This document shows positions 7,238 to 46,096 of a stretch of DNA of 64,000 nt, piece by piece (position 1 is the first letter of the stretch; every line of letters starts with the position of its first letter). A program made the position numbers and the translations under genes. The stretch covers positions 1,391,725 through 1,455,724 of the forward strand of contig NZ_CP047173.1 in assembly GCF_009834185.1 (NCBI RefSeq), read 5' to 3'. The notes below the pieces were generated by a model that saw only the letters and a list, made by a program, of their open reading frames with translations, ran no database searches and was not told where the DNA came from. This DNA comes from Rathayibacter sp. VKM Ac-2760 (GTDB taxonomy: Bacteria; Actinomycetota; Actinomycetes; Actinomycetales; Microbacteriaceae).

Positions 7238-7310
7238 CACAACATCAGCTGAGAAGGCGACTCATCGCCGATGAGCGATGAGCCCCCGATTCAGCTGATG
7301 TTCTGCGGCC
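7238..7310. repeat. palindromic element, family 2 copy A (ACAACATCAGCTGAGA ... TCAGCTGATGTTCTG)
   Basis: About 16-bp inverted arms around a loop that is itself palindromic (CTCATCGCCGATGAG). It lies between the GNAT/AIRS gene stop and the ALDH start. Four more copies lie elsewhere. Confidence 0.8.
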
Positions 7311-7320
7311 GCCGAGTGCG

Positions 7321-8706
7321 TCAGGCCGCGCCGAGGCGGGTGACGGCGGAGGTGATCGCCGGGGTGCTCGCGCCGTCGGGCCAGCGGAGGGTGACGCCCT
7401 CGCCGGGGACGACGCGGCCGATGGCGGCGGTGGCGCTGTGCGGGGTGCCCATCCGGGAGGCGCCGGGGCGGTCGGCGGTGAGCATCGCGAAGCCGGGGAA
7501 GCAGGAGAGCCAGTCGGCGAGGCCGGCGGCGGAGGGGCGGGGGATCGCGGCGACCTCGAGCTCGGCACCCGCCCCGGACGCCTCCGCGAGCATGCCGACG
7601 GTGCCGACGAGCCCGGCCATGCTGACGTCCTTCGCGCCGTCGGGAGCGCAGGCGCCGACGCTCGCAGCGAGGGCGCGGAGCACCTCCGGCGGGCGGCCGG
7701 AGGTCGAGTCCCACTGCAGTCCCGCGTAGCCCGGGCGCCACGCGCCGGAGAGGTCGGCGGTCAGGCTCAGCTGGTGTCCGATCGGGGCGCTGCCCGGGAC
7801 CGGGCGCGCGGTGCGGCCGAGGCCGGTGACCGAGAGCGCGGCGGGCACTCCGAGCTGGGTGTGGCCGCCGAGCAGTGGCACGCCCCAGGCCTCGCTGCCG
7901 GCGCGCAGGCCGCGGAGGATGCGGGCGGCGAAGGAGGCGTCCCGCGCGCCGACCGCGTCGAGCAGGCCGACCGGATCGGCGCCCATCGCGGTGAGGTCGT
8001 TGACGTTGACGAGCACCGAGCACCAGCCCGCCCACTCCGGGTCGCGCTCGACCATCGAGGGGACGATCGCGTCGCAGACGGCGACGAGGTCGGAGCCGGG
8101 GACGGGCGCGCCGTCGTCGCCGCGGAAGCCCGGGCCGCCGAGCTGGCCGGCGAACGCGTCGAGCAGCGGACCGAGGGCGGCCTTGGCCCCGCGAGCGAGG
8201 CGGTCGAAGCGGTCGATCGGCCAGCGCATCCGCACGTGCGGGACGCCGGCCACCTCCGCCGTGCCGAGGCGGTCCCAGCCGAGCCGGCGGAAGAGCACCT
8301 CGTTCTGGGTCTGCACCGTCGCCTCGAAGCGGAGCACGCCGCGCGCCTCGGCCTCGGCGCAGGCGGCCCGGACCAGCGCGGCACCGAGGCCGGCGCCGCC
8401 GCGGGCGCTGCGGCGGACGACCAGGCGACTGCCGGTCCACCAGCCCAGATCGTGCTCCAGCGCGGGCGCGATCCGCACGCCACCGAGCACGCCGTCGGCC
8501 GAGCGCGCGACCAGGACGACCGTGCGCGGATCCTCGTCGAGAGTGTCGCGGTCGTCGGCGTCGAAGAGGCCCTGCTCGGCGACGAAGACCTCGCGGCGCA
8601 GCGCCCGGTAGGCGGCCACCTCGGCCGGGTCCGCGACCACGACCACGAAGGCCTCGCGGGCAGCCGGCGCGACCGCGCGGACCCCCTCGAGGATCGAGAG
8701 CTGCAT
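7321..8706 (-). CDS. GNAT acetyltransferase / AIR-synthase-related fusion protein (MSMEG_0567-type)
   Basis: 461 aa. The N-terminal half is a GNAT acetyltransferase fold and the C-terminal half is an AIR-synthase-related (PurM-like) domain. ATGA overlap with the radical SAM gene. Confidence 0.85.
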   Translation of the reverse strand: MQLSILEGVRAVAPAAREAFVVVVADPAEVAAYRALRREVFVAEQGLFDADDRDTLDEDPRTVVLVARSADGVLGGVRIAPALEHDLGWWTGSRLVVRRSARGGAGLGAALVRAACAEAEARGVLRFEATVQTQNEVLFRRLGWDRLGTAEVAGVPHVRMRWPIDRFDRLARGAKAALGPLLDAFAGQLGGPGFRGDDGAPVPGSDLVAVCDAIVPSMVERDPEWAGWCSVLVNVNDLTAMGADPVGLLDAVGARDASFAARILRGLRAGSEAWGVPLLGGHTQLGVPAALSVTGLGRTARPVPGSAPIGHQLSLTADLSGAWRPGYAGLQWDSTSGRPPEVLRALAASVGACAPDGAKDVSMAGLVGTVGMLAEASGAGAELEVAAIPRPSAAGLADWLSCFPGFAMLTADRPGASRMGTPHSATAAIGRVVPGEGVTLRWPDGASTPAITSAVTRLGAA

Positions 8707-9851
8707 CAGGCGCCGGCGGTCTTCAGCACGCCGCAGGCGCCGCAGGCCGCGCAGCCCGCCTTCTGGCCGGAGGAGAGCATCCCCGCCGCGATCAGCAGCG
8801 CGGCGACCTGCTCGCTCACCTTCTCCAGCAGCGAGCCGGCCGGCGGCAGGACGTGGTCCACCTCCGTCGCGAGCGTGCCCCTGAGCGGCCGGAACGGCAC
8901 CACGAACGGGTAGATCCCGCGCTCGATCAGCTCGCCGGCGCTCGCGACCAGCTCGTCGGGATCCTCGCCGAGGCCGACGAGCAGGTAGGTCGAGACCTGG
9001 TTGCGGCCGAAGATCCGCACCGCCTCGTCCCAGGCCTCCCAGTACTTCGCGGTCGAGACGCGCGCCTTGCCGGGGGTCCAGCGGCGGCGGATGTCGTCGT
9101 CCATCGACTCGATGTGGATGCCGATCGAGAGGGCGCCGGCGTCCTTCAGCTCCTGCAGCGCGGCGAGGTCCTCCGGCGGCTCGCACTGCACCTGGATCGG
9201 CAGCCCGGGCACGGCCTCGAGCACAGCGCGGACGCAGCGGGCGAGGTGCCGGGCGCCGCGGTCGCGACCCTTCGAGGTGCCGGTGGTCATCACCATCTGG
9301 CGGATGCCGTCCAGCCGGGCGGCTGCCTCGGCGACCTCGGCGAGCTGCGCGGGGGTCTTCACGGCGATGGTGGAGTCGTTGGCGAGCGAGGCCTCGATCG
9401 CGCAGAAGCGGCAGCGCTCGGCCGCGTCGTAGCGCATGCAGGTCTGCACGACGGTGGTGGCGAGGATGTTCCGGCCGTGCAGGCGGGCGATCTTCTCGTA
9501 GGAGACGCCGTCGGCGGTGCTGAGGTCGTAGAAGCGCGGGCGCTTCACCGGCTCCACGTCGAGGCCGATGTCGGCGCCGTCGAGCAGGAGCCGGCCGTTG
9601 GTCACGGCGTAGGGGCTCTTCGGGTTGACGGGGATGGCGGCGCCGAGGCCGCCGAGCATCACGTGGCCGTCGTCGCTCGGGCCGGCGCCCGCCTCGCGGT
9701 GCACGGGGGCGTCGACGCGGATGCCCTGCAGGGCGATGTCGACGCGGGTGCGCAGGGCGGACGGGGCGGCTCCGCAGCCGGAGTCGGCGGGAGCGGTGTC
9801 GGTCGGGGCACTGTCGATGGTGCGGAGGCGGGGCATCTGCAGGTCGGTCAT
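8706..9851 (-). CDS. radical SAM protein, MSMEG_0568 family
   Basis: 381 aa with a Cys-rich radical SAM core (CxxxCxxC-like: RCRFCAIE) and a C-terminal CAACGACG cluster. It is the first gene of a minus-strand operon diverging from the Sll0783-type operon. Confidence 0.85.
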   Translation of the reverse strand: MTDLQMPRLRTIDSAPTDTAPADSGCGAAPSALRTRVDIALQGIRVDAPVHREAGAGPSDDGHVMLGGLGAAIPVNPKSPYAVTNGRLLLDGADIGLDVEPVKRPRFYDLSTADGVSYEKIARLHGRNILATTVVQTCMRYDAAERCRFCAIEASLANDSTIAVKTPAQLAEVAEAAARLDGIRQMVMTTGTSKGRDRGARHLARCVRAVLEAVPGLPIQVQCEPPEDLAALQELKDAGALSIGIHIESMDDDIRRRWTPGKARVSTAKYWEAWDEAVRIFGRNQVSTYLLVGLGEDPDELVASAGELIERGIYPFVVPFRPLRGTLATEVDHVLPPAGSLLEKVSEQVAALLIAAGMLSSGQKAGCAACGACGVLKTAGA

Positions 9852-9928
9852 GGTGCTCCTCGGATTCTCGAGTCGAGCGGTGCGCGACGGCGAGTCCGAC
9901 GTCGTGAGCCTCCATTAGGTCAACGCGG

Positions 9929-9975
9929 TGTTTCGGAGCGATGACATCGGGAACGCGATCGTGTTACATCCGGCG
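9929..9975. promoter_or_regulatory. candidate GlnR-type operator in the divergent promoter (GTAAC-n6-GCGTTC-n5-GTCAT-n6-GAAAC read on the minus strand)
   Basis: Two half-site pairs matching the actinobacterial gTnAc-n6-GaAAc pattern, in the 378-bp gap between the radical SAM and Sll0783-family genes. This is inference only. Confidence 0.3.
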
Positions 9976-10229
9976 GCCGCCCCGGAGCCCGCCCGGCGTC
10001 ACGCAGGCTTCTTCTGGCCGAAACCACTTCGAAACACGAGCGGCCTTGACTGGACGCAGTCGGGACGAACGCTCCCGACCCGGCCCCGTCGCTCCGCTCG
10101 CCCTCGAACCGCCCCGAGCGACGCCGGCCTCTGCATCACAGCACCGCCCGTTCCACCCGGCACTCCTGTCCCTGCACCACTCGCTCGCGCCCCGCCCGGC
10201 GCGCTCCTCACCGAACCCCGGAGGTTCCC

Positions 10230-10799
10230 ATGACCGACGACCAGACCACCCCCGCCGACGTCAGCACGGACGACCAGGCCGCGATCGAAGAGCAGATCAG
10301 CGCCAACATCGAGAAGTCGCGCGGCGAGATCGCGCACCCCTCGCTGCCCAAGGGCAGCAACCTCTACGGCTCCACCAAGGTCTTCCCCGACTACCAGGCC
10401 GAGCCCGGGCAGTCCTACTTCACCCTCGTGCACGGCATCGCGCACGAGTCCTCGGTCAGCTTCGTCGCGATCCTGCAGGCGACCCGCGCGGCCCGCAAGG
10501 GCTTCGAGTCGGCCGTCTACTTCTACGGCCCCGGCACGATCAACGCGATGGCGACCCGTGGCTTCCCGACGGTCGGCGACTCCGGCTTCCCGGGGGAGCA
10601 GAACATCAACGACGCCCTGAAGACCTTCATCGACGAGGGCAACCGCGTCTTCGTCTGCCGCTTCGGCATGGCGCTGCACGGCCTGCGCGAGGAGGACCTG
10701 ATCGAGGGCACCATCCCCTGCCACCCGCTCGACGTGCAGGACGCCGTCATCCACTACGCCCGCAAGGGCGCCATCATCAACTCGACCTACAACCTCTAG
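10230..10799 (+). CDS. MSMEG_0572 / Sll0783-family nitrogen-starvation-response protein
   Basis: 189 aa. It is the first gene of a plus-strand operon, with an RBS GGAGG upstream. Family assignment is from recalled family knowledge and gene context (Nit, small protein, FAD oxidoreductase, GT downstream). Confidence 0.75.
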   Translation: MTDDQTTPADVSTDDQAAIEEQISANIEKSRGEIAHPSLPKGSNLYGSTKVFPDYQAEPGQSYFTLVHGIAHESSVSFVAILQATRAARKGFESAVYFYGPGTINAMATRGFPTVGDSGFPGEQNINDALKTFIDEGNRVFVCRFGMALHGLREEDLIEGTIPCHPLDVQDAVIHYARKGAIINSTYNL

Positions 10800-10808
10800 G
10801 CCGCCGCC

Positions 10809-11687
10809 ATGACCGTCGTCGGATCGGTCGCGGCGAACTTCACCCGCGACCTCGATCAGAACTACGCGCTCATCGCCGCGCTGGCCGAGGAGGCCCGGGA
10901 GAAGCGGGTCGAGTTCCTCGTCCTGCCCGAGGCCGCGATCGGCGGCTACCTCTCCTCGCTCGGCAATCACGGCGACACCGTCAAGACGACGACCCGATCG
11001 ATGCCACCGGCGATCGCGCTGGACGGGCCGGAGCTGCGCCGGGTGCAGGAGATCGCGGGCGACCTGCTGGTCGCGATCGGCTTCTGCGAGCTCGACGAGG
11101 ACGGCGAGACCCGCTACAACGCGGCCGCCCTGCTCGACGGCGGGCAGATCTACGGCAGCTACCGCAAGGTGCACCAGCCGCTCGGCGAGCACATGTCCTA
11201 CTCGCCCGGGCCCGGCTACTCGGTCTTCGAGACGCCGGTCGGCCGGGTCGGGCTGCAGATCTGCTACGACAAGGCCTTCCCGGAGGCGGCCCGCTCGATG
11301 GCGCTGGACGGGGCGGAGATCATCGCCTCGCTCTCGGCCTGGCCGGCCGCGCGGACGGCGACGGCGGAGAACCTGCAGGAGGACCGCTGGACCTACCGCT
11401 TCAACCAGTTCGACATCGCGCGGGCCCTGGACAACCAGGTGTTCTGGCTGGCGTCGAACCAGTCCGGCACCTTCGGGTCGCTCCGCTACGTGGGCAACGC
11501 GAAGGTCGTCGATCCGGGCGGCAACATCCTCGCGACGACGCTGCTCGGCTCCGGCATGGCGGTCGCCGACATCGACGTGCGGGGCACCTTCGAGGCGATG
11601 CGCGGCGGGATGTTCCACCTGCGCGACCGCCGGCCGGACGCCTACGACATCGACCGCGTCTGGAGCGGAGGGCTGGTCCATGCCTGA
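10809..11687 (+). CDS. carbon-nitrogen hydrolase (nitrilase/Nit superfamily)
   Basis: Intact E-K-C triad context (LVLPEAAIGGY, YRKVH, GLQICYDKAFPE). Confidence 0.85.
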   Translation: MTVVGSVAANFTRDLDQNYALIAALAEEAREKRVEFLVLPEAAIGGYLSSLGNHGDTVKTTTRSMPPAIALDGPELRRVQEIAGDLLVAIGFCELDEDGETRYNAAALLDGGQIYGSYRKVHQPLGEHMSYSPGPGYSVFETPVGRVGLQICYDKAFPEAARSMALDGAEIIASLSAWPAARTATAENLQEDRWTYRFNQFDIARALDNQVFWLASNQSGTFGSLRYVGNAKVVDPGGNILATTLLGSGMAVADIDVRGTFEAMRGGMFHLRDRRPDAYDIDRVWSGGLVHA

Positions 11688-12000
11688 GATGACCTTCCAC
11701 GTCCGCTGGCCGGACGGCGTCGAGGAGCGCTGCTACTCGCCGAGCCTGGTGATGCACGACTACCTCGCCGAGGGCGAGAGCTATCCGCTCGAGGACTTCG
11801 TCGGGCGCTCGACCGAGGCGCTGCGGCTGGCCAGCGAGCGGGTGCGCGCGAAGTTCGGCTTCGCCTGCACCTCCGCGCTGCAGCAGGAGTCGGAGATCGT
11901 CGCGGCCGCCGCGCGCTTCGACGGCGGGCGGGTGCGGGTGCTGGCGATGGATCCGCCGCTGCCGTCCGCTGCTCCGACCGTGCAGGGGACGCGCGCATGA
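11680..12000 (+). CDS. small conserved protein, MSMEG_0570-like
   Basis: 106 aa. It overlaps the upstream stop by 8 nt and the downstream start by 4 nt. Position and size match the small cluster member. Confidence 0.65.
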   Translation: MPEMTFHVRWPDGVEERCYSPSLVMHDYLAEGESYPLEDFVGRSTEALRLASERVRAKFGFACTSALQQESEIVAAAARFDGGRVRVLAMDPPLPSAAPTVQGTRA

Positions 12001-13271
12001 CCGCGCTCGAGAACGGCCGGCACCTGCCGGTCGCCGTGATCGGCGCCGGTCAGGCCGGGCTGTCGATCAGCCGCCTGCTCACGGACGAGGGCGTCGAGCA
12101 CCTCGTGATCGAGCGCGACACGATCGCGCACGACTGGCTCGACCGCCGCTGGGACAACTTCACCCTCGTCACGCCGAACTGGCAGTGCCGGCTCCCGGGT
12201 TACCCCTACGACGGCGACGACCCGCACGGCTTCATGACCCGCGACGAGGTGCACGCCTGGGTGCGGCGCTACGCGGAGTCGTTCGACGCTCCGGTCGTGG
12301 AGGACACCGAGGTGCTGCGGCTGCGCGAGGGCGCGGACGGGGCCTTCGAGATCGTCACCTCGCGCGGCACGATCACGGCCGACCAGGTCGTCGTCGCGAC
12401 CGGCGGCTACCACCGGCCGGTGCTGCCGGCGGTCGCGCACCGCATCCCGGACTCGGTCGTGCAGCTGCACTCGGCCGACTACCGCTCGGCCGCGGCGCTG
12501 CCCGAGGGCGGGGTGCTCGTGGTCGGCTCCGGCCAGTCCGGCGCGCAGATCGCGGAGGACCTCTTCCTCGAGGGGCGCGCCGTGCACCTGGCGCTGGGGA
12601 CCGCTCCGAGAGTCGCCCGGTTCTACCGCGGGCGGGACTGCGTCGCGTGGCTCGCCGACATGGGCGTCTACGACGTGCCGGTGCACGCGCAGGTGGGCGG
12701 GCTCTCGAAGCGGGAGTCGACCAATCACTACGTCACCGGGCGCGGCGGCGGGCGGGATATCGACCTGCGGGCGTTCGCGCGCGACGGGATGCACCTCTAC
12801 GGGCGGCTGCAGCAGGTCGACGGTGCGTCGCTCCGGTTCGCGCCGACGGCCGAGGCGTCGCTCGACTACGCGGACTCGGTCGCCGAGTCGATCAAGAACG
12901 ACATCGACGCCTACATCGAGCGCTCGGGCGTGCAGGCGCCGACCGAGGCCCGCTACACCCCGGTCTGGCGGCCGGAGCGCGAGATCGAGGAGCTGGACCT
13001 GGCGGCCGCCGGGATCACGAGCATCGTCTGGGCGGTCGGCTTCCGCGCCGACTACTCCTGGATGCAGATCGGCGTCTTCGACGGCGCCGGGCACCCCACC
13101 CACCGCCGCGGCGCGACCGCGGTGCCGGGGCTGCACTTCCTCGGGCTGCCGTGGCTGAACACCTGGGGCTCCGGCCGCTTCGAGGCGATCGCGCGGGATG
13201 CGGAGCACGTGGTGCAGCAGCTGCTCGGCGGCGCGCGGTTGGACCGGTTCGAGGGCGCCGCGGTACGGTGA
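11997..13271 (+). CDS. FAD-dependent oxidoreductase (flavin monooxygenase-like), MSMEG_0569-type
   Basis: Two Rossmann dinucleotide motifs (VIGAGQAG and VVGSGQSG) typical of class B flavoprotein monooxygenases. Confidence 0.85.
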   Translation: MTALENGRHLPVAVIGAGQAGLSISRLLTDEGVEHLVIERDTIAHDWLDRRWDNFTLVTPNWQCRLPGYPYDGDDPHGFMTRDEVHAWVRRYAESFDAPVVEDTEVLRLREGADGAFEIVTSRGTITADQVVVATGGYHRPVLPAVAHRIPDSVVQLHSADYRSAAALPEGGVLVVGSGQSGAQIAEDLFLEGRAVHLALGTAPRVARFYRGRDCVAWLADMGVYDVPVHAQVGGLSKRESTNHYVTGRGGGRDIDLRAFARDGMHLYGRLQQVDGASLRFAPTAEASLDYADSVAESIKNDIDAYIERSGVQAPTEARYTPVWRPEREIEELDLAAAGITSIVWAVGFRADYSWMQIGVFDGAGHPTHRRGATAVPGLHFLGLPWLNTWGSGRFEAIARDAEHVVQQLLGGARLDRFEGAAVR

Positions 13272-13352
13272 CGGCCGCGCGCTCGCCCCGGGCGCGCCTC
13301 CGGCCGCTCGTCCGGCCGCTCGTCCGGCCGGGCGGGGCGAGAGAAGAGGACC

Positions 13353-14207
13353 ATGTCGAGCATCACCCTGGCCGCGGTCGCGGCGCACTTCGGCCGCGAT
13401 CTCGAGCGCACCCTCGTCAAGCTGCCCGGCATGATCGCGAGCGCGCAGGAGCGCGGGATCGACCTGCTGGTGCTGCCCGACGCGACGCTCGGCGGCTACC
13501 TGCTCGACATGCACCACCCCGGCCCGGACGACCTGCCGCAGGCCGTGGAGGTCGACGGGCCGGAGGTCGCCGCGGTCGCGGCGATGGCGGGGGACACGAC
13601 GGTGTGCTTCGGCATCGCCGAGCGCGCGCTCGAGGGCGGCGAGGTCCGCCGCTACAACTCGGCGGTCTGCGTGCAGGGCGGCCGGGTGATCGGGACGCAC
13701 CGGAAGGTGCACCTGCCGCTGGGCGAATCGGAGGCGTACGCGGCGGGCGACGCGTTCCGCTCCTTCGACTCCGCGGTCGGGCGGATCGGGATGATGATCG
13801 ACTTCGACAAGACCTTCCCCGAGTCGGCGCGCTCGCTGGCGCTGGACGGGGCGGAGATCCTCTGCTGCCTCAGCGCCTGGCCGGCCAGCGTCACCGACCG
13901 GTCCGACCGGATCCGCAACGACCGGCAGGCGCACCTGTTCGACCTCTACGACTGCGCGCGCGCCGCCGAGAACCAGGTCTACCTGGTGTCCTCGAACCAG
14001 ACAGGCGTGCTCGGCGGGCTGCGCTTCCTCGGGCAGGCGAAGGTCGTCGATCCGGCCGGCGAGATCATCGCGAAGACGTGGGCGAAGGGCGGGCTCGCGG
14101 TCGCGACGGACGACGTGTCCGCGTCCGTGGCGCGAGCCCGGCGGAGCATGGACCACCTGCGGGACCGCGCCGTGCACGCGTACCACGGGGCGGCGCCCAC
14201 CGGCTGA
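13353..14207 (+). CDS. Nit-superfamily paralog with substituted catalytic residues (probable pseudoenzyme or altered chemistry)
   Basis: Aligns along its length to the 10809 Nit gene, but the nucleophile Cys motif ICYDKAFPE reads IDFDKTFPE (C to D) and the Glu in LPEAAIGGY reads LPDATLGGY (E to D). The Lys (HRKVH) is kept. Confidence 0.8.
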   Translation: MSSITLAAVAAHFGRDLERTLVKLPGMIASAQERGIDLLVLPDATLGGYLLDMHHPGPDDLPQAVEVDGPEVAAVAAMAGDTTVCFGIAERALEGGEVRRYNSAVCVQGGRVIGTHRKVHLPLGESEAYAAGDAFRSFDSAVGRIGMMIDFDKTFPESARSLALDGAEILCCLSAWPASVTDRSDRIRNDRQAHLFDLYDCARAAENQVYLVSSNQTGVLGGLRFLGQAKVVDPAGEIIAKTWAKGGLAVATDDVSASVARARRSMDHLRDRAVHAYHGAAPTG

Positions 14208-14278
14208 CCCGGCCGGCCTGCCCGCCCGGCTGCCCGGCCCCGCTGCCCACCCGCCCGCTCGATCGAGAAGGAGACCCC

Positions 14279-15385
14279 GTGCGGATCGCGCAGCTGACCT
14301 ACTCCACCAGGCCCCGCGGCGGCGTGGTGCACACGCTCGCGCTCTCGGAGGCGCTGGCCCGGCGCGGGCACGAGGTGACCGTCTGGACGCTCGGCCGCGG
14401 CGGTGACTCCGCCTTCTTCCGCGCGGTCGATCCCGCCGTGGCGGTCCGGGTCGTGCCGTTCGCGGCGCGAGAGGGCGAGAGCGTCGGCGACCGGATCGTC
14501 CGCTCCCTCGATGCGCTCGCGGCCGGGCTCGCGGCGACGGGCGGGACGGAGTGGGACGTCGTGCACGCGCAGGACTGCATCTCGGCCAACGCCGCGCTCC
14601 GTGCCGGCGCCGCCGGACCGGGCGGGCTGCTGCGCACCGTGCACCACCTCGATGAGTTCACGACGCCGGCGCTGATCGACTGCCACGAGCGCGCGCTCAC
14701 CGGGCCGGCCGCGCTGCTCGCGGTCTCGGCGTCGGTCGCGGGCGACGTCGCCGCAGGCTGGGGCCGCGAGCCGACCGTGATCCCGAACGGCGTCGACGCC
14801 GCGCGCTTCGCCGCCGCCGCGGGCGGCCAGGGGGTCGCCGAGTGGCGGGCCGAGCTCGGCCGCTACGTGCTCGCGCTCGGCGGCATCGAGCCGCGGAAGG
14901 GCAGCGTCGACCTGCTGGCGGCGTTCGCGGGACTCGCGCCCGGCACGGTGCTCGTCTTCGGCGGCGGGGAGACGCTGTTCGACTACCGGGGCTATCGCGA
15001 GGAGTTCGAGCGCCGGGCGGCCGAGCTGGGGGTGACGCCGGTCGTGCTCGGCACGGTGCCCGAGGAGCGGCTCGCAGCGCTCGTCGCCGGCGCGGCGGTG
15101 CTCGGCTTCGTCTCGACCAAGGAGGGCTTCGGCCTCGCGGCGATGGAGGCGCTCGCCGCGGGGGTGCCGGTCGTCGCGCGCGATCTGCCGGTGCTGCGCG
15201 AGGTGTTCGGCGGGACGGTGGCGTACGGGAGCGACGTGGCGGGCATCCGGGCGGCGCTGGCCGCGGCGCTCGCGGGGGAGGCGCCGGACCCGCGGCCCGG
15301 GCGGGAGCTGGCCTTCTCGCACTCCTGGGACGACGTCGCCGCGAGCCACGAGGCCCTGTACCGGTCGCACGCGAGCGCCGCCTGA
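14279..15385 (+). CDS. glycosyltransferase family 4 (MSMEG_0565-type)
   Basis: GTG start with a GAGAAGGAG RBS. GT-B fold with the EGFGLAAMEALAAGVPVV motif. It sits inside a 1066-aa shadow ORF in the track. Confidence 0.85.
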   Translation: MRIAQLTYSTRPRGGVVHTLALSEALARRGHEVTVWTLGRGGDSAFFRAVDPAVAVRVVPFAAREGESVGDRIVRSLDALAAGLAATGGTEWDVVHAQDCISANAALRAGAAGPGGLLRTVHHLDEFTTPALIDCHERALTGPAALLAVSASVAGDVAAGWGREPTVIPNGVDAARFAAAAGGQGVAEWRAELGRYVLALGGIEPRKGSVDLLAAFAGLAPGTVLVFGGGETLFDYRGYREEFERRAAELGVTPVVLGTVPEERLAALVAGAAVLGFVSTKEGFGLAAMEALAAGVPVVARDLPVLREVFGGTVAYGSDVAGIRAALAAALAGEAPDPRPGRELAFSHSWDDVAASHEALYRSHASAA

Positions 15386-16800
15386 TGCGCCGCTCGTTCT
15401 CGCGCTGCTTCTCGGCGCTCGCCGCGGAGGATCCCGAGCGGGTCGTGGTCGTCGCGGACGACGCGACGCTCACCGCGGGCGCCCTGGACCGGGCCTCGAA
15501 CCGGCTCGCGCGCGCCTACGCGGCGCGGGGCGTCACTCCGGACTCGCTCGTCGCGGTCTCGCTGCCGAACTCGGCCGAGCTGGTGCTGGCCTGCGCCGCG
15601 ATCTGGAAGGCGGGCGCGACGCCGCAGCCGCTCTCGCGCGGGCTCTCGGCGCGGGAGCTCGCCGAGGTCGGCGCGCTCGGGCGGCCCACGCTGAGCGTCG
15701 GCGTCGAGCTGGAGGGCGTGCCGTTCGTCCCCGCCGGCTTCGAGCCCGACCCGGCGCTGCCGGACGACGAGCTGCCGGATCTCCGGGCGGCGTCGTGGAA
15801 GGCGCCCGCCTCCTCCGGCAGCACCGGTCGGCCGAAGATCGTTCTCGCGGCGGCTCCCGCGCTGATGGACCCGACGCAGCCGGTCGCGGCCTTCCTGCCG
15901 CGGGAGGGGGTGCAGCTCGTGGCCGGGCCGCTCACCCACTCCGCGACCTTCACCTACGCGTTCCGCGGGCTCCTGACCGGGCAGCGGCTGGTGATCCTGC
16001 CGCGCTTCGACGAGGCGCGGGTGCTCGCCGCGATCGCGGCGCACCGGGTGACCTGGGCGCTGCTGGTGCCGACGATGATCCACCGGCTGCTGCGGACGCC
16101 CGCGCACCGGGACGCGGACGTGTCGTCGCTCGAGACGGTGCTGCACCTGGGCTCGCCGTGCCCGCCCGCGGACAAGCGCGCGCTGATCGACTGGGTCGGG
16201 GCGGAGAAGGTGGTCGAGGTCTACGCGGGCAGCGAGTCGAACGGGCTGACGATGATCCGCGGCGACGAGTGGCTGGAGCGGCCCGGCAGTGTCGGCCGGC
16301 CGATCGGCGGCACGGAGCTTCGGGTGCTGCGCCCGGACGGGACGGAGTGCGCGGTCGGTGAGCCGGGGCGGGTCTGGCTGAAGCGCGGCGAGCCGACCTA
16401 CCGCTACCTCGGCGGGGAGTCGAAGCGGACGGAGGACGGCTGGGACACGCTCGGCGACGTCGGCTCGGTCGACGCCGACGGCTACCTGACCGTGCTCGAC
16501 CGGGCCGACGACCTGATCCTGCGCGGCGGGGTGAACGTCTACCCGGCGGAGATCGAGCGGGTGCTGGAGGAGCACCCGGCGGTGCGCGGGGCGGTCGCGT
16601 ACGGCGTCCCGGATGCGGAGCTGGGCCAGGCGATCGAGGCGGTGGTCGACATCGCGGACGCCGCAGTGACGGCGGAGGAGCTGCTCGCCTTCGCGCGCGA
16701 GCACCTCGGCTCACGCGCGCCGCGGGCGCTGCGGCTCCAGCGCTCGCCGCTGCGCGACGACGCGGGCAAGGTGCGGCGCGCGGCGCTCGCGGACGACTGA
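15385..16800 (+). CDS. AMP-dependent synthetase/ligase (acyl-CoA synthetase family)
   Basis: AMP-binding motif SSGSTGRPK and adenylation core (YAGSE, GWDTLGDVG, LILRGGVNVYP). Its start overlaps the GT stop (TGATG). Confidence 0.85.
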   Translation: MRRSFSRCFSALAAEDPERVVVVADDATLTAGALDRASNRLARAYAARGVTPDSLVAVSLPNSAELVLACAAIWKAGATPQPLSRGLSARELAEVGALGRPTLSVGVELEGVPFVPAGFEPDPALPDDELPDLRAASWKAPASSGSTGRPKIVLAAAPALMDPTQPVAAFLPREGVQLVAGPLTHSATFTYAFRGLLTGQRLVILPRFDEARVLAAIAAHRVTWALLVPTMIHRLLRTPAHRDADVSSLETVLHLGSPCPPADKRALIDWVGAEKVVEVYAGSESNGLTMIRGDEWLERPGSVGRPIGGTELRVLRPDGTECAVGEPGRVWLKRGEPTYRYLGGESKRTEDGWDTLGDVGSVDADGYLTVLDRADDLILRGGVNVYPAEIERVLEEHPAVRGAVAYGVPDAELGQAIEAVVDIADAAVTAEELLAFAREHLGSRAPRALRLQRSPLRDDAGKVRRAALADD

Positions 16801-16847
16801 GCAGCCGCGCAGGCGGGGCCCGCGAGTGGCCGCCGCCCGCAGGTCGC

Positions 16848-16922
16848 CGCACAACATCAGCTGAGAGGTGGGTCCCTCCCCCCACAGCGGAGGCCCTCCC
16901 TTCTCAGCTGATGTTGTGCGGG
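16848..16922. repeat. palindromic element, family 2 copy B
   Basis: CACAACATCAGCTGAGAGG...CCTTCTCAGCTGATGTTGTG, nearly perfectly palindromic including the loop. It lies 3' of the ligase. Confidence 0.8.
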
Positions 16923-17028
16923 GCTCGACGGCCGTCTCCGGTTTCGGAACGCCCCGGACGGGGAAGTGGAGGAGTGCCCCTTCCCCGGAGTCGTCCCGCG
17001 CGGCTCCGCAGCACCGAGAGGAACCCCC

Positions 17029-18111: not shown

Positions 18112-18132
18112 CGACGCCCGGGCCTTGCCCCA

Positions 18133-18206
18133 ACCGCGAGATGCCACTTATGAGCGGCGACACCGGCGTGTCGCGCTCATAAGTGGCATCTCGCGGGAGG
18201 GGTCGG
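18133..18206. repeat. palindromic REP-like element, family 1 copy 3
   Basis: CGCGAGATGCCACTTATGAGCG...CGCTCATAAGTGGCATCTCGCG, between the convergent GT9 and SDR genes. Arm mismatches are compensated (G to A on both arms), so the stem is preserved. Confidence 0.85.
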
Positions 18207-18243
18207 ACGCGGGTGAGCGTCAGACGTCCTGGGCGTCAGCGGG

Positions 18244-33925: not shown

Positions 33926-34120
33926 ACCGGCGTCGGTCCCGCGTGCACGGGTGATGCTCTGCACGCTGATCGTGTGGCAGATGCTTCCCGACGCGGTCGC
34001 GGTGAAGGGCGGCATAGGTGTGAAGCTCCGTCTCGGTGAGCCAGGCGACAAGTCCGCGGACGGGAAGGGCGCGAGCGACGCGGTCACGCCGCCCGCTCGC
34101 ACAGCCCGCCGCGCAACATC

Positions 34121-34184
34121 AGCCCGGAGCCGACCTCAGCCACGATGGCGGACGGCGACCGCTCTCAGCCGACGTTCTGCGCGG
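34121..34184. repeat. palindromic element, family 2 copy E (degenerate)
   Basis: GCGCAACATCAGCC...GCCACGATGGC...CTCAGCCGACGTTCTGCGC. The CAGCTG core is mutated to CAGCC on both arms (compensatory). It lies upstream of the TA pair. Confidence 0.65.
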
Positions 34185-34519: not shown

Positions 34520-34755
34520 AGGTCCACCCTTCGGCGCTCAAGCACGGGATCTCGGCGGACGACGCCGTCCACGCCGCAGACCTGGCGCTCTGGGTCGAGG
34601 AACTCGACGACGACTCTCCGGCGCGTCAGCTCCGCCTGGGCTTCGATACCCGCGGTCGGCTCCTCGAGACGGTCGTCCTGATCTTCGACAGCGGCCACGA
34701 ACTCGTCATTCACGCGATGAAGGCCCGCCCGGGCATGATCGAGCTCCTGCCCTGA
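34516..34755 (+). CDS. BrnT-like (DUF497) toxin
   Basis: 79 aa. KHGIS...RLGFDTRGRLLETVVLIFDSGHELVIHAMKARP matches the BrnT/DUF497 pattern. Confidence 0.65.
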   Translation: MKVHPSALKHGISADDAVHAADLALWVEELDDDSPARQLRLGFDTRGRLLETVVLIFDSGHELVIHAMKARPGMIELLP

Positions 34756-34875
34756 CGGGCCGCTGACGGGTCGTTCAGGCCGACGCGCGCGTCGGTGCCG
34801 GTCAGGGGCGATACGTCTGTGCGGCTCCCCGCTGCGTCCTCCCTCTTCCGAACGTCGGCGACTTCTCGCGCCCCC

Positions 34876-36594
34876 TCAGAAGTAGCGCGCCAGGTGCTCG
34901 CGGAGCGCCTCGTCGCAGACGTGCACGTACGTCCCCCTGATGCCGCGCGTGAGCAGCACCGTGTAGATGTTGCGGACGTACGCGAGCAGGTCCTCGTCGC
35001 TGTAGGTGATGCCGAGCTTCGGGTTGTTCTCGCGCCCCTTCTTGTCGAAGTAGTGCGAGCGGTCGAAGACGACGCGTCCCGAGGCGGTGTCGAAGCGCAG
35101 ATCGCGGCCGATGATGACGCCCGCGTAGTTGAGGTCGTAGCCCTGCACCGTGTGGATCGAGCCGACCTCGTCGATCGCGCCGGGGGAGTTGATCCAGTCG
35201 CGCTGCGTCTGATTCCAGCGGAGCGACTCGTCGCCGATCACGATGTCGAAGGCGCTCCTGTCCGTCTTCGTGACCCACTTCCACGCGTAGCCCGCGACCA
35301 GTCGTGAGAGGCCGTGCTCCCGGTCGCGCTCGACGATCGAGCGGCGCAGCTCGCCCGGATCGTCGAAGAAGCGCAGGTCGTACTCGCCGAAGTCCTCGCG
35401 CGCCGACGGCGGATCATCGGACAGCGCGGCGCGGACGTAGCCGACGTAGTCCTTCTCCGCGGCGATGCGCATCTGCGAGCGGAGCGGGTAGACCCGGCCC
35501 TCGGCCGACGCCTCCGCGAGGACGGCGCGGGTGACCGTCGCGGGCAGGTCCGCTGGGCGGACGGTCTGCGCGGTGTCCAGCATCAGGATCGTGTGCCTGC
35601 TCCGCGCGCGGATCCAGTCCAGCTGCGTGTACTCGAGCGAGTCCTCGCCGAACAGCCGCTCGTTGATGTCGATGAACTTGCGGTTGAGCGGCCCCGAGGG
35701 CTGGTTCGCCCGCTGGCTGAGCCGGTGCGCTTCGTCGACGAGGAGCAGATCGAACGGCTCGTCGCTCTCGCCGACCTGGAAGGGCGTCAGCACCAGGTCC
35801 TTCGACAGTCCCGGGGTGAGGCTGAAGACCCGGGAGATCGACCCGCGCAGCGACTGCTGCGGCACGACGAGGCCGACCCGCAGCGTCGACAGCAGCTCCG
35901 CGTGGCCCGGGGTGAAGAACTCGCTGAAGATCGAGTCGCCGTCCAGCGGCTCCTCCGGGTCGTGCTCGCGGATGTCCTGCAGCAGCTTCAGCAGGTAGAT
36001 GGCGACGACGGTCTTCCCGGTCCCCGGATCGCCCTGCACGACGACGGTGCTGGGACCGCCGGACTCGAGGTCGGTGAACAGCCCTTCGAGGATGTCCTCG
36101 ACCGCGATCGCCTGATCGTGGTTCAGCGCCTTGAACGGAGACAGCTTGAAGAGATCGCTGTTGACGATCTCGGGGAGCGTCCGCTGGAAGAGCTTCTCCT
36201 CGGTGCGGAGGACCTCGAACACCTCGTCGAACGTCCGGCGGTAGGACGCGCGGTCGAAGTAGTCGGCGTCGGTGATGCCGGCGTTGTGATTGAGGACAGC
36301 CAGGCGGCCCTCCCCCGAGAGCATCCGCAGGAGGAACGATTCGAGGTCGAGGCAGGCCGACTTGTTGAAGGTGTCGTCGAGGACGACCCGCACCCGGTCC
36401 AGCCGGCTCTTCTCCGGCGAGTCGAGGTGCTGGCGCAGTCGCCCCTCGGCGTTCAGCGACTCGCCGACGTAGACCTCCGAGGCGCTGTCGAGCACGTAGA
36501 CGACGGGCCAGTTCCGGTGCCGCGGGTCGGCGGCGCCCCACACGCGCACCCGATCGGAGTCGAACGGGAGTCGCTCGACGCTAAAGCCGGTCAT
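34876..36594 (-). CDS. GIY-YIG nuclease domain plus DUF2075 (Schlafen-like AAA ATPase/helicase) protein
   Basis: N-terminal GIY-YIG motif (VVYVLDSASEVYVGESLNAEGRLRQH), then a P-loop (GDPGTGKTVV) and DExx (LLLVDEAHRL) within a DUF2075-type ATPase. Regional GC is about 63% against about 71% for its flanks. Confidence 0.85.
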   Translation of the reverse strand: MTGFSVERLPFDSDRVRVWGAADPRHRNWPVVYVLDSASEVYVGESLNAEGRLRQHLDSPEKSRLDRVRVVLDDTFNKSACLDLESFLLRMLSGEGRLAVLNHNAGITDADYFDRASYRRTFDEVFEVLRTEEKLFQRTLPEIVNSDLFKLSPFKALNHDQAIAVEDILEGLFTDLESGGPSTVVVQGDPGTGKTVVAIYLLKLLQDIREHDPEEPLDGDSIFSEFFTPGHAELLSTLRVGLVVPQQSLRGSISRVFSLTPGLSKDLVLTPFQVGESDEPFDLLLVDEAHRLSQRANQPSGPLNRKFIDINERLFGEDSLEYTQLDWIRARSRHTILMLDTAQTVRPADLPATVTRAVLAEASAEGRVYPLRSQMRIAAEKDYVGYVRAALSDDPPSAREDFGEYDLRFFDDPGELRRSIVERDREHGLSRLVAGYAWKWVTKTDRSAFDIVIGDESLRWNQTQRDWINSPGAIDEVGSIHTVQGYDLNYAGVIIGRDLRFDTASGRVVFDRSHYFDKKGRENNPKLGITYSDEDLLAYVRNIYTVLLTRGIRGTYVHVCDEALREHLARYF

Positions 36595-36907
36595 GCCTGG
36601 TGCTTCTCCCGCGAGCCTTCTCCACCGGGTACTTGGCCCTGGTCCTCTCGAGCTTCGCGAGGACGATCTCGCCCGCGTCCACCCCGAGTCGGTCGGCGAG
36701 CAGGAGAGAGTAGGTCAGCACGTCCGCGAGCTCGTCGACGGCCGAGGGGAGGTCGCCCTCGCCCCACTGGAAGCACTCGAGCAGCTCGCCCGACTCGATG
36801 CTGATGCTCTTCGCGAGGTTCTCCGGCGTGTGGAACTGCGCCCAGTCGCGCTCGCGCACGAAGGCGCGGAGGGCGTCGAGGACCTCGTCATCGGGCATGG
36901 CTGCCAA
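36581..36907 (-). CDS. MazG-like nucleoside triphosphate pyrophosphohydrolase
   Basis: 108 aa with an EExxE metal motif (ESGELLE) and a MazG all-alpha fold signature. It overlaps the DUF2075 gene start by 14 nt. Confidence 0.8.
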   Translation of the reverse strand: MAAMPDDEVLDALRAFVRERDWAQFHTPENLAKSISIESGELLECFQWGEGDLPSAVDELADVLTYSLLLADRLGVDAGEIVLAKLERTRAKYPVEKARGRSTRHDRL

Positions 36908-37066
36908 CCTACAGCGGCGGTGCGGCGGTCACCCTGCCCCCGCTCGCTTCGACGCCCGAGATCCGCCGAGCGTGCGATCGCGGCGAGGCCCCCCCTTCGC
37001 GTCCACTGCCTCGCCACCCGCCACCGACCGGACCCGAGCGGGGCTTCGCCGCGCCGCCAGGCCCTG

Positions 37067-37546
37067 TCACATGTCCGGCCGGCCGAGTTCCTTCCGCAAC
37101 TGCAGAGCCGTCGGCTCGTAGCCGAGCGACTCGTACAGCCCGCGGGCCGCGGTGTTGAAGCCGAAGACGTTCAGCGCGAGCGCCCGGTAGCCGCGCGAGC
37201 GGGCGTGCTCCTCCGCCAGCAGCATCGCCGCGCGGCCGAACCCGCGGCCCCGCTCGGCCGGGTCGACCTCGACGTCCCAGACGTAGGCGACGCCCTCGAG
37301 GTCCTGCGGGTGCGGGCCGACCCAGAGCACCCCGACCGGGCGTCCGTCGTCGAGGATCCGCAGCAGGTCGTGGCCCGGCGCGAGGTCGCCGCCCGGGAAG
37401 AGCCGCTCGTCGTTCGCGTCCGCGTTCCGCACCGCGGCGGCCTCGTCGTCGCCCGCTCGGATCCGATCAGCGACGTACGTCCTGCGTTGGACGGACCTCC
37501 ACGCCGTCAGTTCGTCGGGTGGGAGCGGCGCGAGGGAGACGGACAT
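37067..37546 (-). CDS. GNAT-family N-acetyltransferase
   Basis: GNAT motif A (RGRGFGRAAM). An alternative GTG start at 37561 is possible. Confidence 0.8.
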   Translation of the reverse strand: MSVSLAPLPPDELTAWRSVQRRTYVADRIRAGDDEAAAVRNADANDERLFPGGDLAPGHDLLRILDDGRPVGVLWVGPHPQDLEGVAYVWDVEVDPAERGRGFGRAAMLLAEEHARSRGYRALALNVFGFNTAARGLYESLGYEPTALQLRKELGRPDM

Positions 37547-37571
37547 GCCCCACGGTCCCACACCGCCGGCA

Positions 37572-37640
37572 CGACGTCAGCTGAGGCACCGGCTCAACGC
37601 CGATGGTGGATGACGAGCGGTCTCAGCTGACGTCGTGCGC
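37572..37640. repeat. palindromic element, family 2 copy C
   Basis: ACGTCAGCTGAGG...GCCGATGGTGGATGACGAGCGG...TCTCAGCTGACGT, between the permease stop and the GNAT start. Confidence 0.8.
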
Positions 37641-37661
37641 CGCCGAGGCGCCGGAGTCCGC

Positions 37662-43368: not shown

Positions 43369-43494
43369 GGCCCGACGCTACGCCGACCCGCGCGCGGCCG
43401 CACCGCCGATGCACCGATCGATCCGTCGGAGAAGCACGTGCCGGAGCACGCGGGAGATCCGTCCGTGACGGATCGATCCGAGCGGAGGAGCGCC

Positions 43495-44172: not shown

Positions 44173-46014
44173 ATGGGCAAGAAGCGCAATCAGGGACGAT
44201 CCGGAGGCGGGCGCTCCGGCGGATCGGGCGGTCAGGGCGGCGGCCGCACGGCCGAGACCGCGCTGATGGTGCGGTTCCGCAGCTGGTACCGCTCCCACCT
44301 GGCCGACGTCGCCGTGATGCACGAGCACCTCGACGTCGACGAGGCCGTCGAGGTCCTCACCGATCTCTTCGCCATGACCCGCGACCTCCGCCCGCGCGGC
44401 TCGTTCGCCCAGCCCGACGCAGAGCTGCTCGAGGCCGTCTTCGACCAGATCGAGGCCGACCTCTCCGGTGAGGAGAGCGAGGCCGACCTCGACGACACCC
44501 TCTTCACCGTCGCCGAGGTGGTCGAGCACTTCCTCGACTTCCTCACCGACGAGGACCTCTGGACCGGCACCGACGAGGAGCTCGACGAGTGCCAGGCCGT
44601 GCTCGACGAGGTCCTCGACCTCGCCGGCTCCTTCGTCGAGGCCGTCCTCGACGACCTGCTCGAGGTCGACGAGGTCCCGGACGCCGAGATGCTCACCGCC
44701 GCCCGCGCCACCGCGCTCGTGCACGCCGCCGACGTCGTGGTCGAGCACCTCGCCGCGACCGCCGACGCGACGATCACTGAGCGCGCCGCCCGCGAGATCG
44801 TGGTCGAGGCGGGCATCTCCTCCGCCGGCTCGACCCCGAGCGACGACGCCGTCCGCATCCCCGTCTCGGCCTGGTGGGACGCGCTGGTCGCCTCCGACGT
44901 GCTCGAGACCGACGGCTCGACCGCGGGCCTCGGCGACGCCGCCCGGCCCTGGCGCAGCTCCGACGCTCGCGAGGCGACGGTCGAGCGCATCGCCTACATC
45001 GCCCGCTTCGTCGAGCAGTGGCTCGCCAGCTCGCAGGAGGCGCTCGCCGCCGCCGACACCGAGAACGGCGCCTTCTCGCCGCGCGAGCGCGCGATCACGA
45101 CGACCGACGCCGTCCTGGTGCGGATGGCCGTCGCCTGCCAGGCGCAGATCCACGAGGGCCTCGTCGTCGGCGAGCTGGTCGACGAGCTCGCCGCCGACCT
45201 CGACGTCTCGCTCGAGGAGGCGCTCGACGAGCGCGAGCGGATGGTCGGCTCGGCCGAGCGGATGCTCGACGACGCCGCCGAGCTCGGCCTGCTGCTGCAC
45301 TCGCCCGAGTTCGGCTACGTGCTGCCCGAGGGCCTGCAGCCCGTCCTCGCCTCGGTGGTCCGAGCGAGCATCGTGCTGCTCGGCGCCCGCGACGCGACCC
45401 GCCTCGAGATCCTCGACGAGGCGACGGAGGACACCGACGCCTCCTACGCCCTGCACGTCTCGCTCCTCGGCACCAAGCCGGTCGTCTGGCGCCGGCTCGA
45501 GCTGTCCTCGGAGTCGTCGCTGCGCGATCTGCACCTCGCGCTGCAGCTCTCGCTCGGCTGGACCGACGCGCAGCCGCACTACTTCAGCGTCGGCGTGCCC
45601 GACGAGGAGCGCGCGCCGATCGGCTCGCCGGCCGATGCCGAGGAGCTCGGCGCCGACCTGGTCGACGAGGGCGGCGTCGCGCTCGCCGAAGTGCTCGAGA
45701 GCGTCGACGACGAGCTGTTCTACGTCTACGACCTCGAGGACGAGTGGCGCCACGTCATCCGCCTCGAGTCGGTCTCGCCGCTGCGGGCCGCGCTGCCGCG
45801 CTGCACGGGGGCCCGGGGCGCCGCTCCGCTCGACGCCCCCGGTGGTCCGGCCGCGTGGGCCGACACGGTCCGAGCCGCGACCGATCCGGCCTCGGCCGAT
45901 CACGCGGAGGCGCTGGACGCCCTCGGCCTCGCCGCCGGGGCGACCTTCGACCCGGCGAGCGTCGACGTCGACGGCATCAACCGATCGCTCGGCCTGCTGC
46001 GCGCGGCGGTCTGA
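44173..46014 (+). CDS. hypothetical protein with a C-terminal plasmid pRiA4b ORF-3-like domain
   Basis: C-terminal YALHVSLLGTKPVVWRRLEL...LFYVYDLEDEWRHVIRLE matches the PRiA4_ORF3 domain. The N-terminal about 350 aa are highly acidic after a Gly/Arg-rich head. Confidence 0.75.
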   Translation: MGKKRNQGRSGGGRSGGSGGQGGGRTAETALMVRFRSWYRSHLADVAVMHEHLDVDEAVEVLTDLFAMTRDLRPRGSFAQPDAELLEAVFDQIEADLSGEESEADLDDTLFTVAEVVEHFLDFLTDEDLWTGTDEELDECQAVLDEVLDLAGSFVEAVLDDLLEVDEVPDAEMLTAARATALVHAADVVVEHLAATADATITERAAREIVVEAGISSAGSTPSDDAVRIPVSAWWDALVASDVLETDGSTAGLGDAARPWRSSDAREATVERIAYIARFVEQWLASSQEALAAADTENGAFSPRERAITTTDAVLVRMAVACQAQIHEGLVVGELVDELAADLDVSLEEALDERERMVGSAERMLDDAAELGLLLHSPEFGYVLPEGLQPVLASVVRASIVLLGARDATRLEILDEATEDTDASYALHVSLLGTKPVVWRRLELSSESSLRDLHLALQLSLGWTDAQPHYFSVGVPDEERAPIGSPADAEELGADLVDEGGVALAEVLESVDDELFYVYDLEDEWRHVIRLESVSPLRAALPRCTGARGAAPLDAPGGPAAWADTVRAATDPASADHAEALDALGLAAGATFDPASVDVDGINRSLGLLRAAV

Positions 46015-46025
46015 GCTCGTCGCCG

Positions 46026-46096
46026 ACAGAACATCAGCCGGGAGCGGACCTCCTCCACCATCGTGGACGAGGTCGCTTCTCAGCTGATCTTGTGAA
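46026..46096. repeat. palindromic element, family 2 copy D (minus-strand orientation)
   Basis: Minus strand reads CACAAGATCAGCTGAGAAG...CCACGATGGTGGAGGAGGTC...CGGCTGATGTTCTG. It lies between convergent gene ends. Confidence 0.8.

Follow-up and report, generated by a model that had tools for sequence, protein, structure and literature searches.

What are the five nested palindromes that lie dispersed over a 64,000-nt stretch of the genome of Rathayibacter sp. VKM Ac-2760, and what might such an element do for its host? The stretch, referred to as the window in the following, comprises positions 1,391,725 to 1,455,724 of contig NZ_CP047173.1, from a genome with a G+C content of 74%. An initial annotation, made from the window alone, had described the five sequences (copies A to E) as one palindrome family with a conserved ATG in the loop. 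They are members of a dispersed repetitive extragenic palindrome family with a length of 76-80 nt that occurs across the genus Rathayibacter. As far as sequence comparison can tell, it is fairly probable that the element is a strand-symmetric hairpin at the 3' end of transcripts, which acts as a bidirectional terminator or protects RNA ends and whose copies are homogenised by conversion from copy to copy.

A dispersed palindrome family in Rathayibacter

The copies combine common arms with one of two unrelated interiors, called type 1 (A, C, D and E) and type 2 (B). All five are present at the places where they had been annotated:

Copy A, 7233..7310: type 1; inner stem CTCATCGC/GCGATGAG; right arm with one mismatch (ATTCAGCTG)
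Copy B, 16845..16923: type 2; perfect 22-bp outer arms; interior GGTGGGTCCCTCC-CCCCACAGC-GGAGGCCCTCCC; ATG absent
Copy C, 37565..37642: type 1; G/C-variant arms ACGTCAGCTGAG...CTCAGCTGACGT
Copy D, 46022..46099: type 1; left arm variant CAGCCGGGAG, right arm canonical; three mismatches
Copy E, 34107..34184: decayed type 1; arms CAGCCCGGAG / CTCTCAGCCG with four arm mismatches

The arm 12-mer ACRTCAGCTGAG occurs five times in the window (0.03 expected from shuffles), and all seven TCAGCTGA octamers of the window are located inside elements. On either strand, copies A to D fold into strong hairpins of -39 to -61 kcal/mol, GC-rich as in a canonical intrinsic terminator, with z-scores of -3.7 to -7.7 relative to shuffled sequence (A, -45.5 and -54.7 kcal/mol, z -5.3 and -7.0; B, -59.6 and -61.5 kcal/mol, z -7.7 and -6.7; C, z -4.6 and -4.1; D, z -3.7 and -4.6). 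Copy E, however, is decayed and its hairpin is no longer significant (z +0.5 and -0.8). A covariance model of the family matches exactly the five intervals listed above with 50-67 bits (A, 67; B, 61.9; C, 63.8; D, 61; E, 52), scores that are partly obtained by construction, since the five copies belonged to the training alignment of the model. With the filters switched off, it found no further copies in the window; the next matches are unrelated palindromes (Family 1, see below) and then noise.

The idea of one shared element is correct for the arms and for the palindromic nature of the interiors, but the family is not uniform, the interior of B being unrelated and devoid of the ATG. The opposite orientation assigned to copy D is confirmed by its loop, which reads CCATCG and not CGATGG as in A, C and E. 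The mutations of E that had been regarded as compensatory (CAGCC on both sides) are the reverse of that: its two T>C changes each face an A and result in two A·C mismatches.

For the search beyond the window, one genome per species of 185,579 species was scanned with the pattern TCAGCTGAG-N25-55-YTCAGCTGAYGT. This arm pattern resulted in 93 stretches, 82 of which belong to Rathayibacter (R. tritici, R. agropyri, R. iranicus, Leaf185, VKM Ac-2630, Ac-2754, Ac-2856, Ac-2857 and Ac-2879). The remaining 11 do not have the extended arms and look like chance matches. By a tolerant pattern search we collected 105 copies from the 82 loci and the window (approximately 720 kb), and the covariance model added just two copies to these 105. 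Several of the loci share 80-95% identity with the window. Two features of this collection have to be kept in mind: the loci were retrieved through exact arm matches, which biases arm conservation and the occupancy of sites between species upward, and all gene contexts rest on gene calls by third-position G+C (GC3).

In these approximately 720 kb, about 195 arm matches fall inside elements, and there are no solo arms and no free inner hairpins anywhere else. The whole window contains no match to the element in Rfam at gathering thresholds, and a permissive Rfam search of copies B and C led only to generic microRNA-precursor hairpins far below threshold. A plasmid collection gave no match for either interior type, and a literature search found no paper that describes such repeats in Rathayibacter. 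This family of approximately 78-base hairpin repeats just 3' of genes, which are similar to the REP and TRIT elements discussed below, is apparently undescribed.

Pairing, position and a possible role at transcript ends

Family, structure, position and strand symmetry of the element can be regarded as established. Each copy is one long hairpin with the consensus (C)GCACAAC-R-TCAGCTGAGA - 4-5 variable bases - apical hairpin - 4-5 variable bases - TCTCAGCTGA-Y-GTTGTGC(G), so that a conserved outer stem of approximately 19 bp is followed by a variable, often mismatched zone of 4-5 nt and by the apical hairpin. In type 1 the interior consists of a 9-bp inner stem with a CAUC/GAUG tetraloop, and the stem exists in the interchangeable versions CTCATCCAC/GTGGATGAG, CTCGCGCAC/GTGCGCGAG and CTCATCGCC/GGCGATGAG. 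The type 2 interior is G-rich/C-rich around CCTCC...GGAGG and has a CACAG/CTGTG loop.

Covariation supports the structure in type 1 and at the R/Y position of the arms. The two checks proposed with the initial annotation, for covariation and for further copies in related genomes, thus both had a positive result. In type 1, 82% of the cells are paired compared to 28-45% with the partners slid, both sides have changed in 22 of 35 pairs, and the 178 double-change cells (110 in shuffled alignments) were not reached by any of 500 shuffles. The R/Y position is G-C in 47 copies, A-T in 40 and non-Watson-Crick in 18 (11 of them G·T or A·C), and it covaries even inside the single genome of Ac-2856 (18 A-T, 9 G-C, 5 other; Fisher p = 1e-5). 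Some variant copies have changed CAGCTG to CAGCCG or CGGCTG and still retain complementarity between the arms, for instance CAGCCCGGAG/CTCCGGGCTG at locus L091. It is therefore the pairing from arm to arm that is maintained, and not the small palindrome within each arm.

The position of the copies is very uniform. None of the 105 lies inside a called gene, and 89 of them face the 3' end of a gene at a median distance of 15 nt from the stop codon, with a sharp peak at 0-15 nt, while the corresponding median for gene starts is 133 nt. The copy-bearing gaps are convergent in 35, tandem in 35 and divergent in seven cases, compared to 18.5%, 55% and 26.5% of all gaps of at least 70 nt (p = 6e-8); this corresponds to a 2.5-fold enrichment of convergent gaps and a depletion of divergent ones. 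At many sites the element makes up nearly the whole convergent gap, as in L016 (4 and 5 nt to the stops), L079 (7 and 7 nt) and L045 (10 and 2 nt).

Within the window, the copies are spaced 8.5-17 kb apart amid housekeeping genes and occur in both orientations. The statement that every copy lies just 3' of a gene applies to A to D, which are 11-48 nt away from a stop codon, but not to E, for which the nearest called stop codon is 431 nt away. Copy A is located 14 nt past the stop of a GNAT-AIRS gene (7321-8706, - strand) and approximately 86 nt upstream of the GC3-called start of an aldehyde dehydrogenase gene at 7150 (gene 5798-7150; longest open reading frame (ORF) to 7240). An internal attenuator, as suggested for this copy, would look the same as an ordinary terminator between two genes of the same direction. 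Copy B follows the stop of an AMP-binding enzyme gene (15385-16800, + strand) after 48 nt and is located upstream of a glycosyltransferase-9 gene (Pfam). Copy C is separated by 23 nt from the stop of the preceding amino-acid permease gene (from 37662, - strand) and by 22 nt from the GNAT gene that follows (37067-37546, - strand). Copy D fills a convergent gap, 11 nt past the stop of a gene with a PRiA4_ORF3 domain (44266-46014, + strand) and 25 nt past that of a zinc alcohol dehydrogenase gene (46121-47095, - strand), and has orthologues in L014 and L021.

The two orientations of the type 1 loop are equally frequent (26:26), and there is no orientation bias in respect to the upstream gene for either type 1 (11:7) or type 2 (6:9). 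As the two strands of the element read alike, a single copy could serve the two genes that converge on it.

If these features reflect a function in RNA, transcription of the adjacent gene or genes would run on into the element, whose hairpin would form the tail of the transcript and mark its 3' end. The A/T-rich part of the element is confined to the basal arms, where the 5' side is rich in A (CACAACA) and the 3' side, straight after the GC-rich stem, in U (UGUUGUG). An A-rich 5' arm, a GC-rich stem and a UGUUGUG 3' arm together resemble a bidirectional intrinsic terminator with a weak, suboptimal U-tract. Imperfect U-tracts are tolerated by mycobacterial RNA polymerase, which NusG assists at such terminators (PMC3993855). 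Where termination fails, the hairpin could still block 3'-to-5' exonucleases and shield the upstream RNA, as has been proposed for REP hairpins (PMC3733652).

The copies seem to be mostly inherited vertically, with interiors that would occasionally be replaced in place. In 13 of 46 pairs of orthologous sites the interior type switches at identical boundaries. Site C carries type 1 in the window and type 2 in VKM Ac-2856 and Ac-2857, and site B carries type 2 in the window and type 1 in R. tritici (L055); in both cases the sequences (a three-way comparison at site C) align base for base up to the arms on both sides. Among the 33 orthologous pairs of the same type, eight match better if one interior is reverse-complemented. 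The simplest explanation for such a swap might be gene conversion from another copy, in which the common arms provide the homology. Both this mechanism and a role in termination or stabilisation are what we infer from the described patterns. A type switch by insertion beside an old copy and subsequent deletion was set aside, since the flanks of site C align without the loss of 12-14 nt that it predicts.

One convergent gap contains a copy of this family in Ac-2754 (L068) and a member of a third palindrome family in Ac-2856 (L007), so a large hairpin is kept there while its sequence changes. The comparison of L068 with L007 and L013 is free of the bias from arm retrieval; L007 has the other palindrome family and L013 has no copy of the family described here.

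Several observations weigh against a hairpin that terminates transcription or protects RNA. The flanks beyond the stem are GC-rich and contain no canonical U-tract of 7-9 nt, and the only U-rich stretch, YGUUGUGC with 3-4 U among its 8 nt, is engaged in pairing with GCACAACR. In vitro, mycobacterial RNA polymerase failed to terminate at hairpins without U-tracts (PMC3993855). The repeat family TRIT ('Tuberculosis Rho-independent terminator') of Mycobacterium, which comprises 147 palindromic, mostly bidirectional and genus-restricted copies at gene termini (Gardner et al. 2011, PMC3152330), raises a similar concern: its predictions overlap just 2-4% of the mapped 3' ends of M. tuberculosis (bioRxiv 10.1101/2022.06.01.494293), and its actual terminator activity is doubtful (PMC3993855; bioRxiv 10.1101/2022.06.01.494293). 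Some copies of the Rathayibacter element (copy C and copies in L025 and L063) are located 5-25 nt before the start of the next gene, which would be silenced by full termination. G·U and A·C mismatches on the sense strand do not differ significantly in number (50:36, p = 0.16), and selection at the RNA level has therefore no specific signature. Covariation in type 2 is not above that of shuffles, because too few positions vary. Finally, the arms are 88% identical between orthologous sites and the flanks 72%, a difference inflated by the exact-arm retrieval, and a pure hairpin function leaves it unexplained why the sequence of the arms is retained while the interior is free.

Competing explanations

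The main rival explanation is that of a selfish, non-autonomous mobile element without host function, similar to miniature inverted-repeat transposable elements (MITEs) or REPINs. The arms would then be the sites for a transposase encoded elsewhere, and copies would accumulate 3' of genes, chiefly in convergent gaps, where their insertion is least harmful. We consider this possible but on balance unlikely, and it is compatible with a host role. The species-biased subfamilies are well in line with it: all copies of R. tritici are of type 1 with an ATCCAC stem, those of Leaf185, Ac-2879 and Ac-2754 mostly have a GCGCAC stem, and those of Ac-2856 and Ac-2857 are mostly of type 2. Interiors are closer to each other within species (10.7 differences) than between species (13.6). 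Seven sites in Ac-2856 and Ac-2857 carry a canonical, and on this explanation fresh, type 2 copy 12-14 nt away from a decayed type 1 copy, with unconserved linkers. At L008, three tandem units of the element alternate with the third palindrome family at a period of 203 nt. Different families in the same gap, as in L068 and L007, also speak for it, and conserved arms of approximately 19 nt around a free interior are like terminal inverted repeats.

On the other hand, there is no target-site duplication either at the edge of the palindrome or at offsets 0-11; the sole direct-repeat matches are self-complementary dinucleotides (GC, likely CG) within the palindrome. No identical dispersed copies were found within a genome, and the closest non-local pairs differ in at least 3 of 34 interior bases; the closest pairs of all are orthologues in sister species or local duplications. 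Among the genes between or beside the copies examined, Pfam reveals no transposase. The absence of solo arms and of plasmid matches also argues against a mobile element, and type switches with identical boundaries are not expected from adjacent insertion and loss.

The arms might also be recognised by a trans-acting factor of Rathayibacter that is dedicated to them, one option being an enzyme that nicks or exchanges hairpins, so that the interior is swapped like a cassette while arms and position stay fixed. We regard this as rather improbable. If true, however, it would represent a factor-coupled and self-homogenising terminator system in high-GC Actinobacteria and could also explain TRIT.

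A role at the level of DNA is distinctly improbable. In this case, the two 8-bp palindromes TCAGCTGA, 46 bp apart, would bind a dimeric DNA-binding or nucleoid protein, or a cruciform would affect supercoiling between transcription units. The perfect 8-bp palindrome in each arm, the confinement of this octamer to elements in the window, the complete strand symmetry without G·U bias and the conservation of the arm sequence beyond the needs of pairing could all be explained in this way. However, the copies with CAGCCG or CGGCTG have lost the palindrome within the arm and retained the pairing between the arms, and the tight link to stop codons, not to promoters, fits better to a role at transcript ends.

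The initial annotation had proposed that copies E and C bracket a single islet and that copies might mark the boundaries of islets. The first proposal is contradicted by the DUF2075 block (34875-36917), which is present with 89% identity in L063 and L025, while only the segment 33689-34874 is missing from L063 (VKM Ac-2856). This 1.19-kb segment contains copy E and a ribbon-helix-helix antitoxin/toxin pair (antitoxin 34256-34519; 79-aa partner without Pfam match, 34516-34755), and in VKM Ac-2856 the convergent genes that flank it are only approximately 20 nt apart (L063:4185-4205).

As for boundaries in general, a rule is not supported: variable segments often abut copies, but the copies sit at the ends of transcription units. 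Since such ends tolerate insertions, we do not read the copies as integration sites. The idea that the element is a recombination or attachment site, similar to the attC sites of integrons and used for the insertion or exchange of gene islets, is very unlikely, even though several variable segments do abut copies. The 9.66 kb between A and B (window 7187-16846), with genes for a radical-SAM protein, the GNAT-AIRS protein and the AMP-binding enzyme, among others, and flanked by the aldehyde dehydrogenase and glycosyltransferase-9 genes, are replaced in R. tritici by 484 nt (L055:1917-2399) that contain a single small ORF without Pfam match. Between two copies in VKM Ac-2879 there is a 2.9-kb segment of lower G+C content (L038:1880-4760) encoding an AraC-type HTH_18 regulator and a 371-aa protein that contains repeats, looks secreted and has no Pfam match; both genes were missed by the GC3-based caller, which suggests an atypical composition. 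Compared to L031, two additional genes and an additional copy are present in L002 and L073. The outer boxes GCACAAC/GTTGTGC are also loosely similar to attC boxes, for which the consensus is RYYYAAC/GTTRRRY.

Nevertheless, the ends of the indels do not match the ends of the elements: E is internal to the 1.19-kb indel, and the 346-bp duplication in R. agropyri (L065) merely contains a copy. The two direct repeats of this duplication (5244-5589 and 7444-7789; 98% identity), each with a copy, flank a 1.85-kb insert with 52-61% G+C and a 408-aa ORF without Pfam match; the insert has the look of foreign DNA that was integrated with duplication of its attachment region. In addition, attC sites form cassette arrays of one direction next to an integrase gene, whereas the copies of the element are dispersed among housekeeping genes in both orientations, at the distances of 8.5-17 kb given above for the window, and no integrase was seen beside the copies examined.

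That a short and conserved leader peptide begins at the loop ATG, as the same residues behind the ATG of A, C and E (+ strand) and D (- strand) had suggested, is refuted with hardly any room for doubt, since the ATG is found equally on both strands (25 type 1 copies only on the + strand, 25 only on the - strand, five on both, seven on neither) and is missing in 42 of 43 type 2 copies, lies within a stable stem-loop of random orientation relative to the neighbouring genes, and is followed by 'residues' (S-Q-L-M-F-C) that are nothing but one reading frame of the conserved right arm. The 'conserved peptide' is, judged from these sequences, a by-product of conserved DNA. The reading frame that had been seen to continue from E into the antitoxin gene is a mechanical artefact of taking the longest ORF, as the ribbon-helix-helix domain (Pfam) lies within the part starting at 34256.

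Relation to known repeats and further features

How transcripts end in high-GC Actinobacteria, which have few canonical terminators, is still debated. Among known systems, TRIT is the closest analogue of the Rathayibacter element, followed by REP (repetitive extragenic palindrome) sequences with their bacterial interspersed mosaic elements (BIMEs) and by REPINs. Both TRIT and the Rathayibacter element occur in Actinobacteria with few canonical terminators, are restricted to a genus, are conserved in sequence and structure, are palindromic and hence mostly bidirectional, and are tied to gene termini with roughly a hundred or more copies per genome. The concentration of a palindromic hairpin at gene termini that characterises TRIT is found here as well, with the median of 15 nt to the stop and the convergent enrichment given above. 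However, TRIT differs in sequence and peaks at approximately -8, overlapping the stop codon, while the Rathayibacter element starts at a median of 15 nt after it, and only the latter has two unrelated interiors on the same arms. As the genus differs from Mycobacterium, the element is an analogue and not a member of TRIT.

With the REPs and BIMEs of enterobacteria and pseudomonads it shares the high copy number (105 copies in approximately 720 kb), the extragenic location and imperfect palindromes 3' of genes and between the genes of operons. Mosaic clusters with other repeat motifs, as in BIMEs, occur in the L008 array and in the pairs of type 2 and type 1 copies, though their linkers are not conserved, unlike those of BIMEs. 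The orthologous pairs also have species-specific sequence at the same loci, and Gilson and colleagues are said to have found the same for REPs in 1987. Termination and protection of mRNA 3' ends have been proposed as roles of REPs, which have 20-40 bp, a stem of 5-13 bp, a loop of 2-20 nt and an unpaired GTAG or CGTC tag (PMC3733652). The Rathayibacter element is larger (76-80 nt, with an outer stem of approximately 19 bp and an inner stem of 9 bp) and has no unpaired tag, since the CGTC/CATC in AAC[G/A]TCAGCTG is part of the stem formed with the other arm; its variable base forms a Watson-Crick pair in 87 of 105 copies. No RAYT transposase is linked to it, the genes between or beside the examined copies not being transposases.

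REPINs consist of two inverted REPs that form a long hairpin and are mobilised by RAYTs (PMC3116915, PMC3337134). Both combine two conserved arms in inverted orientation and a spacer into a long hairpin, and both form slowly diverging populations that persist within genomes. REP units, however, also occur singly, whereas no arm was found outside complete elements in the approximately 720 kb, and the Rathayibacter arms, unlike REPIN units, cannot fold alone, as a loop does not fit into TCAGCTGA. In MITEs such as the Correia elements of Neisseria, terminal inverted repeats likewise enclose a short non-coding stretch, and these elements are intergenic and can act as terminators. The Rathayibacter element differs from them in that no target-site duplications, no parent insertion sequence with the same ends and no recent identical copies were found. 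Since it deviates in these tests from tagged REPs, REPINs, MITEs and attC sites, it is an analogue of these classes and not a member of a named family.

Such a family is not surprising to a specialist, but it is useful for annotation. The covariance model can flag the ends of transcription units in Rathayibacter and helps to avoid mis-called ORFs such as the 124-aa ORF starting from the loop of copy E. A second genus with symmetric, sequence-conserved hairpins after stop codons would offer an independent system to ask whether such hairpins terminate transcription, protect RNA ends or only hitch-hike. Swaps of the interior in place, between fixed arms, provide a clean case for concerted evolution of bacterial repeats.

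The third palindrome family mentioned above belongs to VKM Ac-2856 and Ac-2857 and reads CATGCTGATCGAGTAGCC..GCGTATCGAGACCCAC plus its complement. It was found at:

L007:300-470
L008:5015-5118, 5218-5321 and 5420-5523
L093:6690-6890

The window itself contains another palindrome family, Family 1, which is unrelated to the element (CCGCGAGATGCCACTTGTGAGCG / CGCTCACAAGTGGCATCTCGCGG):

2000-2074: Family 1 palindrome
3999-4061: Family 1 palindrome
18117-18213: Family 1 palindrome
58526-58598: Family 1 palindrome

Its 15-mer GAGATGCCACTTGTG has eight matches (0.03 expected), and its copies are located right after gene ends, including two convergent gaps. As Family 1 is also found at gene ends, hairpin repeats of no fewer than two families serve the same role in this genome.

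The sole Rfam match in the window is a tRNA gene at 30961-31032 (RF00005, 58 bits). A tandem array at 27354-28198 comprises 9.2 copies of a 92-nt unit with 87% identity, each unit being composed of two inverted half-units (CGGCTCGCAGA..GACGTCCGGCTCGC / GCGAGCCGAACCGGTTTCCGCGAGCCG). The array is located mostly between gene calls that end at 27104 and start at 28303, in an interval without a called high-GC3 gene. Finally, an imperfect inverted repeat is located at 47108-47243, between the alcohol dehydrogenase gene and the gene that follows it; its 45-nt arms are separated by 46 nt and show 76% complementarity.

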